From the NCBI GenBank assembly GCA_963832745.1, contig CAWHVC010000001.1:192001-256000 (forward strand): a stretch of DNA of 64,000 nt. Direction: 5' to 3'. Shown piece after piece: positions 40,092-46,036 of the stretch. The position numbers and the translations under genes are program-made. Within the stretch, counting starts at the first letter, position 1. Every line of letters begins with the position of its first letter. This DNA is from Candidatus Bathyarchaeota archaeon (GTDB lineage Archaea; Thermoproteota; Bathyarchaeia; Bathyarchaeales; Bathycorpusculaceae). The notes beneath the pieces were generated by a model, which was not told where the DNA came from, made no database searches, and saw only the letters and a program-made list of their open reading frames with translations.

Positions 40092-40372
40092 ATTTTCCTC
40101 TCGTTAAATTTCAGATAAATTCAGCTCTCAACCGATTGGGTATTTATATTTTATTTAGTGGGTAAAAAAAAATTAAAAAAAATAACTAAACAAATGAATC
40201 AATGTTGTTTTTTTAGAGCCCAAACTTGAAACCCACTAAACAGAATCAGGCACTCACTCTTATGCCTGCACTAATCACCACTAAAGTGCGCTGAGTGACC
40301 TAAAATAAGATTTAACCGTCGAAGGGGTGATTACATGCTTAGTTAAAAAATAGTTAATGGTGGGGGACAGTT

Positions 40373-40394
40373 GGGGATGATGTCGCCGTCCCAG
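40373..40394 (+). repeat. attL core
   Basis: GGGGATGATGTCGCCGTCCCAG, identical to 45273-45294. Confidence 0.92.
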
Positions 40395-40442
40395 CCTTAG
40401 GGCAAAGTAAATTTTATCGATGTTATATGATGTTGTTGAGGT

Positions 40443-40790
40443 CTAGTTATAAGCTTTAGGGGGAATTCTTTCTTTTTCCAATTTGCCAACGAAATATTTC
40501 TCTAAATCATAAATAAACTCGTTAGCATAAGCCATCCAAACATGATGCACGCCTTGGTAAGCTCCGCAATTAGGACAAATATTTCCAAAGTTATGGTCTT
40601 CAAAGACAGTTTCAACGGGTGCAAGATTGCCTCTATATTCTGAATTGTAAACATCTTCAGTCATTGGATATGTTACTTGCATTTTTCCATTGCATTTATA
40701 GCAAGACCAAGGAAATCTATAAACTGAAATTTTCATATTAGTGAGCACCTTTGAAGTAATCTGTTGGTTATTCAATAAATGCTTAATCAT
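40443..40790 (-). CDS. Zinc-finger protein (element cargo)
   Basis: CYKC and CPNCG pairs; start probably at internal MKISV. Confidence 0.65.
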   Translation of the reverse strand: MIKHLLNNQQITSKVLTNMKISVYRFPWSCYKCNGKMQVTYPMTEDVYNSEYRGNLAPVETVFEDHNFGNICPNCGAYQGVHHVWMAYANEFIYDLEKYFVGKLEKERIPPKAYN

Positions 40791-40899
40791 TAATTAGAGC
40801 TGATAATGGAGTACCCAGAAAATAAGCTTAGAATATTCAGTTGGCGGCAACCCTTGTGGTTGCTCGCTTCCAACAAATCCTTCTAAATACTAAGCGAAC

Positions 40900-41538
40900 C
40901 TATTTTCCGCCAACGTCTTCTCGAAAAGCATCCTCAAGAAATGAGTCAACCCTTTTTATGTTAGCAGTTATCTGACTTGTCTGTTCCTTAAAATCAGCAA
41001 ACAATTCAGGATATTTTTTAACGATTTCTATAAGTGTCTTTATCTGCTCCATGCTCGTTTCCTTTAGCAATAGGAAACCAAAAATGGCTGAAACATCAGT
41101 TTTATCAATTTTGCCTTTAGCAAGAATTGCCTGATAACCCATTTTAAACGGTTCATATCCAAGTATTGATGACATTTCAACAACACATTGAAGTTGCCTA
41201 TTTTCTGGATAGATTTCAAGTATTCTGTTTGAGAGGACTTTTTGATTGGCTTCTTCAGCAAGGGCAATATAAACTCCTGCGGTTGTCAGCCAAAAAAGTT
41301 GGTGGTCTCTGCCACGATATTCTTCTAATTTTATTTCGGTTATGATGCCTTTTTCTTGCATTGAATCGAAAGCGTTCCAAACTGACTTGTAATGTCCGTT
41401 AATAATTTTATTTAAGCTGTATTTTGACTTAGGAGGGTTTTCTGCTAAGCATAGGAGTATGCGTTTTTGTAACGGCGGAAGGAACTGGCTTTCGGTAATA
41501 GCTTTTGATATATGTTCTTCCCCTTGTGGTTGAGCCAT
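40900..41538 (-). CDS. Winged-helix regulator of the element, divergent from rep
   Basis: L...QKRIL..L......YSL......YKSV..AF..M..KGII.......FWLT..G. Confidence 0.7.
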   Translation of the reverse strand: MAQPQGEEHISKAITESQFLPPLQKRILLCLAENPPKSKYSLNKIINGHYKSVWNAFDSMQEKGIITEIKLEEYRGRDHQLFWLTTAGVYIALAEEANQKVLSNRILEIYPENRQLQCVVEMSSILGYEPFKMGYQAILAKGKIDKTDVSAIFGFLLLKETSMEQIKTLIEIVKKYPELFADFKEQTSQITANIKRVDSFLEDAFREDVGGK

Positions 41539-41611
41539 AGTATGTACTCCGATTTTAACTATGTCATACGGTGCCTATATTAAATTTTGCCAATTTATGC
41601 CTCGATGAAAT

Positions 41612-42613
41612 ATGATTAACATTCAATCAACAGAAAAAAACGCAGTATCACTACATCGAGAAATCAAGAACGAGTTTTGGAGTTACGGCGATTATGTATT
41701 AGTGGGGCATGGAAAGCAAACAAACTCCGATTGTGGAAAATTCGATAAATTCATGGGGTGCCTAAATTATAAGGCACATAATCAAACACGTTTCTTCAAT
41801 GAAACCCTAGACAAAGACTCCGTTTTTGTTAAGCCAATTTATCATTCCTGCGACAAACCAACGTGTCCTGTGTGTTTTAAGTATGGATGGGCTGTAAGAG
41901 AAGCTTACCGAATGGAAGAACGTCTAAAAATAGCGTCTAACCGTTTTGGACTTCCAGTTGAGCACATTGTAGCAAGCATTAGAAGCGAAGATTATGGACT
42001 AAGCCTTGACGCATTACGGAAAAAAGCCATAAAACTAATGTCAAATCGCGGAATTATTGGCGGTTCTATAATTTTTCACGGTTTCCGATATGCCAACCGA
42101 AAAGAAGCAAGGATAAAAAGTGTTCCTTTTGGGTGGCGATGGAGTCCACATTTTCACGTTCTTGGCTTTGTTGGTGGGGAAGGTTATGGTAAATGCCGAA
42201 AATGTAAAGGCGGTGACTGTTATGCTTGCAAAGGCTTTGAAGGCGCAACAAGGCGCGAAAACAAAAAAGACGGCTGGCTCGTCAAAGTCCTAGACAAACG
42301 CAAAACTGTAGGCGGAACATGCTGGTATCAGCTAAATCATTGCTCGATTCAAAGAGGCTCAAAAAAATCTCATGCAACAACATGGTTTGGCGCTTGCTCA
42401 TATCGCAAACTCGAAATAATCAACGGTGAAAAAGGCGTTGGAATACAGCATAAATGCCCCATCTGTGACTCAGAATTAGTCCATATACGCTATTTAGGAC
42501 AAGAAAAGTTCTTGCTTACTCGGCGTGGCGAAATCCGATGTATGTTTGCTGAGGATGGAACACCTCTCTGGGAAATAGCGCATGAAGGTGAATGTCATGG
42601 AGGCTGTGGATAA
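41612..42613 (+). CDS. rep: Rolling-circle replication initiator (HUH endonuclease)
   Basis: Zn motif HSCDKPTCPVC, motif I HIVAS, HUH PHFHVLG, motif III YQLNH, WFG, C-terminal CPIC. Confidence 0.85.
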   Translation: MINIQSTEKNAVSLHREIKNEFWSYGDYVLVGHGKQTNSDCGKFDKFMGCLNYKAHNQTRFFNETLDKDSVFVKPIYHSCDKPTCPVCFKYGWAVREAYRMEERLKIASNRFGLPVEHIVASIRSEDYGLSLDALRKKAIKLMSNRGIIGGSIIFHGFRYANRKEARIKSVPFGWRWSPHFHVLGFVGGEGYGKCRKCKGGDCYACKGFEGATRRENKKDGWLVKVLDKRKTVGGTCWYQLNHCSIQRGSKKSHATTWFGACSYRKLEIINGEKGVGIQHKCPICDSELVHIRYLGQEKFLLTRRGEIRCMFAEDGTPLWEIAHEGECHGGCG

Positions 42614-42924
42614 TGATTCGCCAGCAAAGAAGACGTTTAGAGCGCCAATGGAGCAAGATAAAGGTGGGCGAAATATGTACAGACTTCATTGAAAAAAACA
42701 ACCTTTTCACACCTCCTCACATTCTTTCCTTCCAAGCGGTGAAATTATCTGAGTATTTAGTTGGCGTGTATAATGTTGGGCTCTTTAATTTCAAGAAAGA
42801 CAAAGGGCATGGAGAATTCTTCACGACCTGCATGTTTGTTGAAGGTTGCTTAAGAAATCTGCACTCTGAACGGTTGGGTTTCATTCAAGAGTTTGATTTG
42901 TGGGAGGTGGACGAAATCGATTGA
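42592..42924 (+). CDS. Hypothetical protein downstream of rep
   Basis: ORF overlapping the rep stop; start probably at internal MIRQQ. Confidence 0.45.
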   Translation: MSWRLWIMIRQQRRRLERQWSKIKVGEICTDFIEKNNLFTPPHILSFQAVKLSEYLVGVYNVGLFNFKKDKGHGEFFTTCMFVEGCLRNLHSERLGFIQEFDLWEVDEID

Positions 42925-43006
42925 TGCTTTGGCGCATCGTTTGGCTACTTGCGGAAAGTTCGGCAAGCGATAAGCGGAGCGCACCGCGCAAGCGGGCGCG
43001 AACTTT
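42923..43006. other. GC-rich inverted-repeat cluster, candidate rolling-circle origin (dso/sso)
   Basis: AAAGTTCG (42955-62)/CGAACTTT (42999-43006); CTTGC/GCAAG; GCGC-a-CCGC-GCAA-GCGG-GCGC hairpin. Confidence 0.55.
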
Positions 43007-43027
43007 AGTAAAAAAATTGGTTATCTC

Positions 43028-43850
43028 TTAATCAATTGATTTAGTCAACTTCTTCTTTTCCATCTTTTTTGTGATATAATCAGTTATACCTTCAACTAAA
43101 TCATTAACAAATATTCTTTCATCATCTGAAACACTTGTTCCAAAATGCTCACCGAAGTTAGGATAGTATGTTATATGTTATTTTAAGAAGGTCAACTATA
43201 CTGATTAATTATCAGTTCTCATCAGTGCTATCATCAATGAGAAATTTGAATGTGTTTTTTCAACATCTATTGCTTTACTTTTAGTGGACCCAAGAAATTT
43301 CTATCTATGTTGTAGCCCTTTTTCTGAACTAAGCTTAATTGCAGAATTATTGTTAATGATTTTTGCGCTTAACCGTCAGTAATCAAACATAGATTTCATA
43401 AATGTCAGAGTCAATCCAGCAATCAATTCATTGCAGCAACTTAAACTTTGAAGACCATATCAGAAAGAATGCTTTAAATTATATTGCTCCACTTGCCTAA
43501 GGCAATTATTACTCACGCAAATTTTTTTTCGATTATTTCTTATCAATCTTGTTTCATATGGAAATGGCGATTTTTGGCCCAGTTTGTGTTAATTCCAAAT
43601 ATCCAAGTGAATTCCCATGCAATTCTATAAAATATTACCGTCAGTAATGACATGTAGGGTAAAATCAAGGTTGTACATTCAAAAAATAGCCTTTTCCATT
43701 ATAATTATTTGAAACGTGATCCAAGGTGCGAATGATGCCTCCAATTCAAAAAATTATTCACGGTTCATTTGCGACTTCAAGTTATCCTTCCCAATTAAAA
43801 GAGACTTGAAAGATAGACGAGTAATTTAGTAGCCAGGCGTAATCATGAGT
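43028..43850 (-). pseudogene. Decayed cargo gene
   Basis: AT-rich with short protein-like fragments broken by stops, ending ...PNFGEHFGTSVSDDERIFVNDLVEGITDYITKKMEKKKLTKSID*; boundaries approximate. Confidence 0.45.
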
Positions 43851-44328
43851 AGGCGATATTTTTTTGCTATTTGGTCAAGTTTCGACAACAAGAACTTTTA
43901 AATTTAATCGTTAAAATAATAAATTTAAGCTAGGAGATCTGAACTTACCCGTAGGTTCTATTTCTTTAAGAGGGATAGGTTTGAATTGGTTGAAAAGCTA
44001 TCGGCATTACCTTTAGTCAATTAACGTTGATTCTATCAAATTTTTAATATATCTGTGGTATCAGAGAATATGACGGACATAGAGGCAGTGAAGACAGCTA
44101 AAGTGTAGTAGTGACTGAGGGTGAGAGACTGAGTGACTGACAGACAGAGGGTGACATGACATTATTAACGGGGATTTTGCGCATATATTACGTCATGGTT
44201 AGTAGAGAAAATCAAGAATTTGCGGGCTTTTTTAAAATACCATAACAGTAAAATTGATTTTGTTGATTGCTTCTTGAATTCGCCATCTAAAGCAGGATAT
44301 AGCATCACCAACGGGTATGGCATCTTGC

Positions 44329-45213
44329 TTAATTGCTTGTTGTACTTGTTTCGTCTGTTGTGCATTTTAGTGGTATCCACTGGATTTCTTGGTCTTCAGT
44401 AATGTATTTTTCAGTGCTTCTTGCGTCTTTGTGTCCAAGTATTTTTTTAACTTGCAAAAAGTTGTGTCCTGATAGTTTGTATTCTCTTGTGCCTTTTCGT
44501 CTGCGGAAATCATAGAGTTGCACTTGTTTTAGTTCGGGCATGTTGTATTTTTCTGCAAGGTTGTTTCTTGCATGTCTGTAACATGTGCTTAAGGTGTCTG
44601 AGGATGTTGGAAAAATTATGCTTTGAGCGTTTAGGTTTTCACGTTTGATATACCTTTTTAGCAGTTCTAAGGTGTCCTGCTTTAGTTTTCCTTCTCTTCC
44701 GATTGTATGTTTTGCGCCTGTAAGGTCAGTTCTTCCTGTTACTAAATCAATGTCTTGAACCTTTAGCCATGTTAATTCGATAGGGCGTTCCCCTAAATCT
44801 CGAGACATCTTTAATTTAAGGTTCAAAGGAAATTTAACGTGATTTATAATAAATTGCACTAATTCCTCTTTTGGTGCCCTACGCTTCTTATCTTGGCGCT
44901 GATAAAAGGGCTTATTCCATGATAACCCTAAAGATTGAATCGCTATATTATAGGATTCTATCAGGTTTTCCTTTCTGGCGTTAGATACATTCTTGTTTGC
45001 TATGTATAGTTTGACTTCTTGAGGGTTGCTTGTGTTGCAGTTTTTCTGTAAATGTTTAAGTTCCTTTACTACTCTTTTGATGGTTGTTGGTTCATAGGCT
45101 TCTTTTTTCATCCAAATAATAACGTTAGCTAAGTTAAGGTTTCCAATATCTTTAGGGTCTTGGGTTTCCTGTTGAAGTTGTTTTAAGAGCTCTTTTACGA
45201 GTTTAGGGTTCAT
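44329..45213 (-). CDS. int: Tyrosine recombinase/integrase
   Basis: Catalytic set: LGERPIE (R), GAKH (K), YDFRR, LGHKD, TEKY (Y); starts about 60 bp inside attR. Confidence 0.92.
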   Translation of the reverse strand: MNPKLVKELLKQLQQETQDPKDIGNLNLANVIIWMKKEAYEPTTIKRVVKELKHLQKNCNTSNPQEVKLYIANKNVSNARKENLIESYNIAIQSLGLSWNKPFYQRQDKKRRAPKEELVQFIINHVKFPLNLKLKMSRDLGERPIELTWLKVQDIDLVTGRTDLTGAKHTIGREGKLKQDTLELLKRYIKRENLNAQSIIFPTSSDTLSTCYRHARNNLAEKYNMPELKQVQLYDFRRRKGTREYKLSGHNFLQVKKILGHKDARSTEKYITEDQEIQWIPLKCTTDETSTTSN

Positions 45214-45269
45214 TCATTTTCATCTTTCCTTTACCAAAACCCTAAGATACTGGGACGATGTTTCAATCG

Positions 45270-45337
45270 TTGGGGGATGATGTCGCCGTCCCAGTCGGAT
45301 TGCGAAAGATGACGAGCTTATGACGGACAGACCCCAA
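45270..45337 (+). ncRNA. Box C/D 2'-O-methylation guide sRNA (contains attR core)
   Basis: Stem TTGGGG/CCCCAA; C ATGATGT 45277-83; 12-nt guide; D' CGGA 45296-99; C' ATGACGA 45309-15; 12-nt guide; D CAGA 45328-31; box deviations are compensatory. Confidence 0.85.
45273..45294 (+). repeat. attR core
   Basis: Identical to 40373-40394. Confidence 0.92.
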
Positions 45338-45616: not shown

Positions 45617-46036
45617 TTAGCGTGACATGCAGTCAAGCATTAAGGTGCATGTGAAGCATTCTTCAGGAACAGGCGTGTCTTTTGGACGTTTTTTAAGGTA
45701 ACCAGCGTAATGAGCGCACACTGACGGAGCAACTGGAACCTTGCTGACCGATTCGGTTTTAAGCTCGGGCTGGGACTGAATTTCAGGTTCAAGTTTTGCC
45801 TCGATTGGCGCTGCTTCCTGATGAGGTTGAACGGTTTTTTCTTCTTTTTTAAGTTCAACTTTTGATAGGCATGCGGGGCATGCGTAGTATGCTTCGGCGA
45901 CGCCGGGGGAGTTGTTTACGGCGAATATGGGTTTGGTGAAGCGTTTGCCGCAGCGGATGCACATGTAGTTGACACTGGTTTGTTGAGTTTCTGTTGTGGT
46001 TGTTTCGAGTGTTAGTATGCTGCGGCTGTGTTCCAT
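45617..46036 (-). CDS. Cys-rich zinc-finger protein
   Basis: CIRC..ACPAC and CAH..GYL...PEECFTC...LDC. Confidence 0.75.
   Translation of the reverse strand: MEHSRSILTLETTTTETQQTSVNYMCIRCGKRFTKPIFAVNNSPGVAEAYYACPACLSKVELKKEEKTVQPHQEAAPIEAKLEPEIQSQPELKTESVSKVPVAPSVCAHYAGYLKKRPKDTPVPEECFTCTLMLDCMSR

Follow-up and report, generated by a model that had tools for sequence, protein, structure and literature searches.

A mobile element of a Bathyarchaeota archaeon probably integrated into a box C/D guide RNA gene

Textbooks give integration into tRNA genes as the rule for integrative elements, and the locus described here raises the question of what may stand in for the tRNA gene. The stretch analysed (64,000 nucleotides from a Candidatus Bathyarchaeota archaeon, hereafter the window) contains at positions 40373–45294 an element of 4.9 kb with genes for a tyrosine integrase, a probable HUH Rep and small DNA-binding proteins, which is bracketed by two copies of a short direct repeat. 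The answer that we consider probable is that the element integrated site-specifically into a host gene for a box C/D small RNA (sRNA), and that this sRNA is a double guide for the nucleotides G2251 and U2593 of 23S rRNA.

The direct repeat and the attachment sites

The repeat, GGGGATGATGTCGCCGTCCCAG, is 22 bp long and occurs at 40373–40394 and 45273–45294, exactly 4,900 bp from start to start. With up to three mismatches allowed, these two copies are the only ones in the whole 3,021,879-bp genome of the host (G000), and the reversed control pattern has none, so that the perfect repeat described in the initial annotation is confirmed at both sites and restricted to them genome-wide. The repeat is short, as it might be if it were a chance match with nothing integrated, but this explanation is refuted by these counts and by the recurrence of the same arrangement in 24 loci and 83 metagenome contigs (see below). 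No tRNA was found within the window by ARAGORN, and no match at gathering score by Rfam; the repeat is therefore not tRNA-like, in agreement with the original description. The right-hand copy runs on into a full C/D-like RNA (45273–45335) and the left-hand copy does not, as had also been noted, and a covariance model of this RNA finds one full-length copy in the host genome.

These features suggest an integration of the following kind. An attP site on the element would have recombined with an attB site formed by the first 22 nucleotides (nt) of the sRNA gene, i.e. its 5' stem, C box and most of its D' guide. As it is the 5' end of the gene that is used, the element would have to bring its own copy of the 22 nt together with an upstream promoter region, and a complete sRNA gene would thereby be left at attR, adjoining the integrase gene and divergent from it. 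The native promoter and a 22-nt stub would be left behind at attL.

At attL (core 40373–40394, plus strand) the copy of the 5' stem, C box and most of the D' guide has no C' box, D box or 3' stem downstream. It is preceded by a predicted remnant of the native promoter of the sRNA gene (40343–40372, plus strand), with an A/T-rich TATA-like box at 40343–40352, about 21–30 nt upstream of attL, with nothing but the 22-nt stub now in front of it. In other genomes, a TATA-like AAAGTTTATTTGA precedes the uninterrupted sRNA at the spacing seen for this box in the window. On the element side, the core is followed by an arm, CCTTAGGGCAAAGTAA (40395–40410, plus strand), that is conserved among elements. 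The arm to the left of attR, CCCTAAGATACTGGGACG (45240–45257, plus strand), is a putative integrase binding site: it carries CCCTAAG-ATA-CTGGGACG, an imperfect inverted copy of the CGTCCCAG-C-CTTAGGG at the other junction. This arm occupies the position where the restored sRNA gene needs a promoter.

The attR core (45273–45294, plus strand) can tentatively be divided into an arm GGGGATG (45273–45279), a 7-bp overlap ATGTCGC (45280–45286) and a second arm CGTCCCAG (45287–45294). On this reading (t)GGGGATG and CGTCCCAG are imperfect inverted repeats of each other that flank the 7-bp ATGTCGC; inverted arms around a short overlap are the usual layout of a tyrosine-recombinase core. In three loci (L049, L057 and L063) host and element copies differ at core positions 3–5 and just after position 22, and the crossover is placed between these positions for that reason.

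The motif CTGGGAYG of the element-side arm at attR is absent from the uninterrupted sites L009 and L022, which show the TATA-like AAAGTTTATTTGA. We also considered whether this motif acts at the RNA level, by pairing with the D' guide, and do not favour this, as the motif is located between the TATA-like box and the first nucleotide of the RNA and is therefore probably not transcribed.

The sRNA and its predicted targets in 23S rRNA

The sRNA of about 63 nt (45273–45335, plus strand) is recognizable as box C/D-like by the order of its boxes and their 12-nt spacing. It begins with a 5' stem GGGG (45273–45276) and a C box AUGAUGU (45277–45283), which agrees with RUGAUGA in six of seven positions, followed by a D' guide of 12 nt, CGCCGUCCCAGU (45284–45295), and a D' box CGGA (45296–45299), which is CUGA in most homologues. 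A linker of 9 nt, UUGCGAAAG (45300–45308), leads to the C' box AUGACGA (45309–45315), of the form AUGANGA, then to the D guide of 12 nt, GCUUAUGACGGA (45316–45327), the D box CAGA (45328–45331) and the 3' stem CCCC (45332–45335), which closes a terminal GGGG/CCCC stem. Both spacers measure 12 nt in the window, and elsewhere the distance from C' to D box varies from 11 to 14 nt.

The sRNA is conserved across the GTDB family and order of the host and more weakly across the class Bathyarchaeia. A 73-nt query gave matches in 89 of the 100 other genomes of the same family (E ≤ 1), the 20 best of these family matches being 85–92% identical over nt 1–63/66. A covariance model (R1) built from an alignment of 57 homologues detected the sRNA in 14/15 family genomes and in 3/4, 5/5 and 1/1 genomes of three sister families; scores were lower in five further families of the class, and in another family none of 27 genomes had a match. 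Invariant in the 57 aligned sequences are the C box (AUGA.G), the C' box (AUGA.GA), the D box, the GA of the D' box, the end stem and ten nucleotides of the D' guide (GCCGUCCCAG), while the linker and part of the D guide vary.

Both guides can be paired with 23S rRNA, which is numbered here by alignment to E. coli rrlH; the assembled 23S rRNA of the host ends at a contig end and lacks its first ~245 nt. (On one contig of the host, about 118 kb separates the 16S rRNA gene, C5:524515-526004, from the 23S rRNA gene, C5:643790-646560.) With nt 2147–2157 of the assembled 23S rRNA, corresponding to E. coli 2247–2257, the D' guide forms an uninterrupted run of 11 pairs, nine Watson-Crick and two G.U, and counting five pairs from the D' box leads to G2251 in the P loop. 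The D guide pairs within 23S 2589–2600 (in the window eight Watson-Crick and two G.U pairs, to 2590–2599), and its N+5 position is U2593. By the N+5 rule, applied to the paired 12-nt guides, the sRNA is thus expected to select G2251 and U2593: the D' guide would direct 2'-O-methylation of the former and the D guide that of the latter.

Natural variation tends to preserve these pairings. Positions 2–11 of the D' guide pair with 23S 2248–2257 in 67–72 of the 72 parsed homologues, and where C is changed to U, in five sequences, a G.U pair is still formed. Within the same 72 homologues, C/U and A/G differences in the D guide between lineages maintain its pairing, and in one locus (L148) the D guide has nine contiguous Watson-Crick pairs with 23S rRNA. 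For the invariant D' 10-mer, just one best site exists in 4,380 nt of rRNA.

Several results weigh against a guide function. The D box reads CAGA in all 57 aligned homologues, drawn mostly from the host family; that of the window is CAGA too and not CUGA, which corrects the initial annotation. No Rfam gathering score is reached by the sRNA, both guides contain G.U pairs, and the pairing of the D guide is lost in a large subgroup of the host family. The complementarity score of the 12-nt guide is not above that of shuffled sequences, and the complementarity of the invariant 10-mer was equalled by 199 of 5,000 shuffles and by 127 of 5,000 random genomic 10-mers (about 1 in 25–40). To our knowledge, methylation at U2593 has not been reported. 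A search for perfect complementarity of at least 9 nt between the window's sRNA and rRNA gave no match.

Much of this would also suit an attachment site that encodes some other small RNA, or a relic whose 5' third is uniform because it is overwritten at each integration. The promoter and the first 22 nt are indeed exchanged at integration, the D' guide contains a G.U pair in all 72 sequences, and no conserved Watson-Crick fold is found in the sRNA alignment by RNAalifold, a result that is expected for a C/D RNA and is not evidence for one. The 3' half of the sRNA, however, is never replaced by the element, and yet it keeps the C' box, D box and stem, and its D guide pairs with 23S 2589–2600 through compensating transitions in many lineages. 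Families in which no integrase of this clade was observed retain the core of the D' guide and have CUGA D boxes. Of 16 distant homologues, seven have the canonical D box CUGA and most others CCGA or UUGA, from which we infer that CAGA is a family-specific variant. Finally, the N+5 position of the D' guide falls exactly on a universally methylated nucleotide. An RNA other than a guide, or a relic, is therefore quite unlikely in our judgement.

The preferred reading, a methylation guide, also agrees with the wider context. The genes for fibrillarin and Nop5 are side by side in the host genome. At a permissive Rfam threshold, five of the six matches to the sRNA are C/D families, all far below their gathering scores, and yeast snR67 ranks first among them (E 0.058; 19.2 bits, with the gathering score at 55); given this margin the sRNA is not filed under an existing Rfam family. 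The claim that the RNA is a conserved rRNA-methylation guide is therefore supported by the order and spacing of the boxes, the CUGA D boxes of distant homologues, the pairing to G2251 and U2593 that is preserved through variation, the fibrillarin and Nop5 genes, and the match to snR67. The complementarity statistics taken alone are modest; this prediction from sequence leans more on the register, which places a universally methylated nucleotide at N+5, on the second guide and on the pattern of conservation. A strict double-box C/D pattern had no match in the 3.02-Mb host genome (reversed control 0), and a loose pattern had one, as did its control. Since the strict pattern finds none although fibrillarin and Nop5 are present, the other C/D guides of the host must be few or have degenerate boxes.

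According to the consulted part of PMC7600485, G2251 is ribose-methylated in bacteria (by RlmB), its equivalents are methylated in yeast (Gm2619) and mammals, and the nucleotide is regarded as universally methylated; the eukaryotic guides for this P-loop G are snR67 and U31 (excerpts of PMC7600485 and PMC11121408). The sRNA thus has the same predicted target as these two snoRNAs of yeast and human. It differs from them in that they are eukaryotic and longer, and with a match so far below the family threshold common descent is not claimed. The second guides also differ, that of snR67 being directed to Um2724 (PMC11121408, in part), compared with U2593 in E. coli numbering here. Most likely, then, the sRNA guides methylation of the P loop, with Gm2251 as the predicted product.

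Recurrence of the integrase at the sRNA and the host context

An alignment of six integrases served to collect homologues from a set of genomes with a single representative of each species, and the sRNA was located with an nhmmer profile. Among the 75 loci obtained, 53 have a full-length sRNA that is divergent from the integrase gene and within about 60 nt of its start. The linkage depends on relatedness: it is seen in 51/54 loci with integrases at least 40% identical to that of the window, and in 2/21 below 40%. Two of the three misses at or above 40% (L061 and L069) lie at contig ends, where the first 19–23 nt of the sRNA can still be seen, and the third (L116) is a short remnant. Homologous integrases are thus also found at the C/D sRNA, in favour of the original proposal.

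At least one partial copy of the sRNA, comprising its first 23–32 nt, lies 1.3–8.6 kb beyond the integrase in 24 of the 53 linked loci, and always on the far side of the element. These 24 loci provide 27 attL junctions, 21 of which, like that of the window, have CTTAGGG after the core and continue CTTAGGGC(A/T)(A/T)AGTAAT. The 27-nt attL junction was found exactly in 83 metagenome contigs. Upstream of it, 58 contigs have no integrase, 15 have too little sequence, eight have an integrase remnant and two have a near full-length integrase. The last two (L166 and L197) represent one sequence, with a 100% identical overlap of 1,542 nt, in which the integrase is split into two open reading frames (ORFs) of 160 and 141 residues directly upstream of the attL-type junction; here a new element has probably inserted beside an older, decayed one. 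An integrase or remnant upstream of an attL-type junction in 10/83 contigs fits the entry of new elements into the attR of older ones, and we read these ten contigs as nested or tandem insertions and not as attP.

The host side of the site can be followed in other genera, where the gene order is L15e, an RNA-binding protein (PF01877), Rpp30, Pop5, sRNA, rhomboid and Zn-ribbon (Pfam labels). In many genera the sRNA comes directly after the two RNase P protein genes Rpp30 and Pop5 (e.g. L030:662-2153 and L038:752-3142). The uninterrupted sRNA lies 50–100 nt after Pop5 and is followed by rhomboid in L009, L022 and L042, with the Zn-ribbon gene next in L009 and L022. In the occupied locus L030 the same neighbours enclose an insertion: Pop5 is followed by attL, 2.4 kb with an integrase remnant, the full sRNA, rhomboid and Zn-ribbon. 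In the window, the right-hand neighbour of the sRNA is the host Zn-ribbon gene (45617–46036, minus strand; tblastn match at C1:237623-237961), a neighbour shared by 23/34 loci, and Pop5 is on another contig of the host genome.

The sRNA might also be considered as cargo of the element, with no host target involved and with the 22-bp stub as a leftover of a rearrangement within the element. A full-length sRNA stands beside an integrase or remnant in 8/19 of the best family loci, and the promoter region of the sRNA in the window is element sequence. Against this stand the uninterrupted copies between host Pop5 and rhomboid, which have no integrase (L009, L022 and L042), and the 3' flank, which is host DNA with a conserved neighbour. 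In addition, the sRNA is a single-copy gene present in 14 of 15 family genomes, and the partial copy is always across the element from the full gene and accompanied by the conserved element arm. We regard a cargo sRNA as very improbable, and return to integration into a host sRNA gene.

Two negative results have to be set against such an integration. The 60 other genomes of the genus yielded no empty site with both flanks of the window; of the three best matches to the left flank, one (L120) is a deleted orthologous element and two (L121 and L122) are without the sRNA, and G016 and G081 likewise gave no empty site with these flanks. The search for an empty site was thus successful across genera, in the form of uninterrupted and occupied loci with the same neighbours (L009, L022 and L042 compared with L030), and unsuccessful for the flanks of the window. 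Secondly, a free circular form was not found: there was no relative of integrase or Rep in IMG/VR (by alignments), nor in PLSDB or phage records (by tblastn, for the integrase at E ≤ 1e-3). Terminal repeats were likewise present in none of the 83 junction contigs.

Genes, age and relatives of the element

The integrase gene (44329–45213, minus strand; 294 residues) is the best defined of the element. Its product matches Pfam Phage_integrase (PF00589; E 1.5e-8, 35 bits with a cut-off of 27.1) and the PHROG integrase (2.9e-12). Residues R143, K168, R237, H261 and Y270 are invariant in six aligned sequences and, by their position, are the putative catalytic residues; the first His of the HxxR motif is a Tyr (Y234). 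Relative to five relatives, dN/dS is 0.07–0.11, indicative of purifying selection.

The second core gene (41612–42613, plus strand) encodes 333 residues with an H-F-H motif and two Zn clusters, probably an HUH rolling-circle Rep. It is conserved in the element family, with homologues in 21/75 loci, including loci with distant integrases away from the sRNA; H180-F-H182 and Y239, which would be the catalytic residues, and eight Cys residues are invariant in 14 aligned sequences. A language-model protein atlas leads to Rep_1/Zn_Tnp_IS91 clusters (0.96). For the AlphaFold2 (AF2) model (pLDDT 78.6), six of the eight top rows given by VIA-align are nuclease domains of Rep/NS1 replication proteins, all of them weak matches (Z ≤ 4.9). 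The top rows include SIRV1 ORF119 (Z 4.9), which we take to be a Rep, Vientovirus Rep, pMV158 RepB, MVM NS1 and AAV5 Rep, with Z values of 4.2–4.9. No match to this protein was found in Pfam or PHROG, in PDB by Foldseek at E ≤ 0.001, or in PDB sequences by phmmer below E 0.7. If Rep does act by the rolling-circle mode, the free form of the element would be a small plasmid or a satellite-like replicon.

An ORF of 110 residues (42592–42924, plus strand) overlaps the 3' end of the Rep gene and is conserved with it: homologues occur in 14/75 loci, each directly downstream of Rep. It is followed by a GC-rich non-coding stretch of about 74 nt with two hairpins (42929–43002; DNA fold −21.4 kcal/mol, z −1.9), a candidate replication origin or terminator. 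This stretch is 84–88% identical in L044, L047 and L049, although their neighbouring cargo differs.

On the minus strand are the genes of a probable winged-helix DNA-binding protein of 212 residues (40900–41538) and of a Cys-rich protein of 115 residues (40443–40790). The label of the former comes from language-model leads only: the protein atlas leads to HTH/MarR-type (helix-turn-helix) clusters (0.89–0.91), homologues are present in 6/75 integrase loci, and no Pfam match is above cut-off. The 115-residue protein has no Pfam or PHROG match and no homologue in the 75 integrase loci at E ≤ 1e-4. Among the gene labels of the initial annotation, that of the integrase is therefore firm (PF00589 and PHROG), and those of the HUH Rep and the winged-helix regulator are less so than was claimed.

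Between 43003 and 44328 lies variable or decayed cargo of about 1.3 kb that is not conserved in related elements; no ORF of at least 50 residues is present from 42925 to 44164. An imperfect tandem duplication of 22 nt, AGTGACTGAGGGTGAGAGACTG (73% identity), is seen at 44110–44153 in this ORF-free part.

Three observations on the window's copy speak against a mobile element in its present state. Besides the 1.3 kb without ORF, what remains of the conserved C-terminal tail of the integrase is spread over two other frames (around 44240–44330), which points to frameshifts; relatives of the integrase have 314–315 residues, compared with 294 here. Moreover, L047 and L120 keep both chromosomal flanks (82–83% identity) and lack a segment corresponding to 40216–42399 of the window (2.2 kb, attL included). 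As both flanks are shared with this deleted orthologue, the insertion predates the split between the species of the window and that of L047 and L120. The copy in the window is probably an old resident that is now immobile, though its repeats are still perfect. Of the original claim of a mobile element, the integration is supported, and the copy itself looks decayed, with a frameshifted integrase tail and ORF-free cargo.

Such decay could also mean that the element is a domesticated remnant, in which the integrase is kept for a purpose of the host, e.g. control of the adjacent sRNA promoter. The integrase has a dN/dS of 0.11 relative to L047, whose locus is without attL, and this selection coexists with a lost tail and decayed cargo; the CTGGGACG arm, in addition, lies between the TATA-like box and the start of the RNA. 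The many independent elements of differing size (1.3–8.6 kb) and the nested or tandem insertions, on the other hand, indicate that the clade is mobile now or was so recently, and remnants of all degrees of decay are common. We consider domestication unlikely; it concerns only the present state of the window's copy and does not conflict with its arrival by integration into the sRNA gene.

The more distant integrases are found at other RNA genes. An Rfam scan of 20 of the 22 loci without sRNA detected the archaeal RNase P RNA (RF00373, 173–209 bits) in ten (L083, L084, L090, L093, L095, L101, L102, L106, L115 and L116), with integrases of 25–37% identity. In seven of these, RNA and integrase are on the same strand, with 11–58 nt between the end of the RNA and the start of the integrase alignment. 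In L083 (7643–14629) a sequence of 22 bp, made up of the last 19 nt of the RNase P RNA and 3 nt beyond, has an exact second copy at a distance of 6.68 kb, and this repeat brackets the integrase and homologues of Rep and of the 212-residue protein; L090 has a 17-bp repeat of the same kind at its RNase P RNA. Other distant integrases lie divergently beside a tRNA-Arg (L097:7818-7896), a weak tRNA match (L094:7838-7895) and a 5S rRNA (L105:7526-7645, 260 nt away); no direct repeats were found at these neighbours within the three loci.

Known archaeal systems share several features with the element of the window. The available text of two sources on archaeal integrative elements (PMC8371274 and PMC6563490) describes a tyrosine recombinase, short terminal direct repeats and regeneration of the target gene, as here; the targets given in such reviews are tRNA genes, protein genes and intergenic DNA, and a survey of Thaumarchaeota counted 39 tRNA, 15 intergenic and 14 protein-gene targets (PMC6563490, in part). 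In this available text, supplementary tables aside, the term 'sRNA' occurs in neither source, 'snoRNA' and 'non-coding RNA' do not occur in PMC8371274, and 'non-coding' does not occur in PMC6563490. The closest parallel is with the pTN3-like integrases of Thermococcales, for which excerpts of PMC8371274 likewise describe an attB in the 5' half of an RNA gene that is restored by integration, a restored gene driven by the element's promoter on the integrase side, and an integrase gene that stays intact. Their target is a tRNA gene, in contrast to a C/D sRNA gene with a 22-bp core here, and the parallel is functional only. Our literature search found no archaeal element in a C/D sRNA gene, with the limit that the term 'C/D' is not searchable in full text, and nothing related on integrases at the RNase P RNA gene. 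The suggestion that this target class is undescribed for archaeal elements thus stands, in that no report was found.

Bacterial phages also integrate into small RNA genes, ssrA being one of them. In the ffs gene for 4.5S RNA (PMC12540744, in part), too, a conserved stable small RNA gene serves as attB and is restored by the element's copy. The bacterial sites differ from the present one in that they concern other RNAs and are mostly at the 3' end, and no archaeal or C/D example was found among them. The mechanism proposed for the window is therefore ordinary; what is new, as far as checked, is the target class and the integrase clade.

The finding bears on the biology of these archaea in several ways. 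A whole clade of integrases uses a C/D guide gene, and its sister clades appear to use the RNase P RNA gene; together, the two targets suggest that these integrases prefer short, slowly evolving RNA genes and not tRNA structure. For this new integrase clade of an uncultured, abundant archaeal class, a 22-bp attB is now defined, with a proposed layout of arm, overlap and arm. A conserved archaeal guide is predicted for the universally conserved Gm2251 of the P loop, and the origin of this modification in Bathyarchaeia can be tested directly. In many genomes the native promoter of a housekeeping RNA has been replaced by remnants of elements, which may supply a promoter in its stead. Taking these points further, we tentatively propose, as a possibility that we are more inclined to doubt than to accept, that one integrase superfamily of Bathyarchaeia, on the same Rep-bearing elements, has specialised on non-tRNA stable RNA genes, namely the 5' end of the P-loop guide and the 3' end of RNase P RNA, and that in many lineages the guide is now expressed from an element-derived promoter containing an integrase-arm motif between its TATA-like box and the start of the RNA. 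If this is true, mobile elements or their remnants would control the expression of a conserved ribosome-modification guide.

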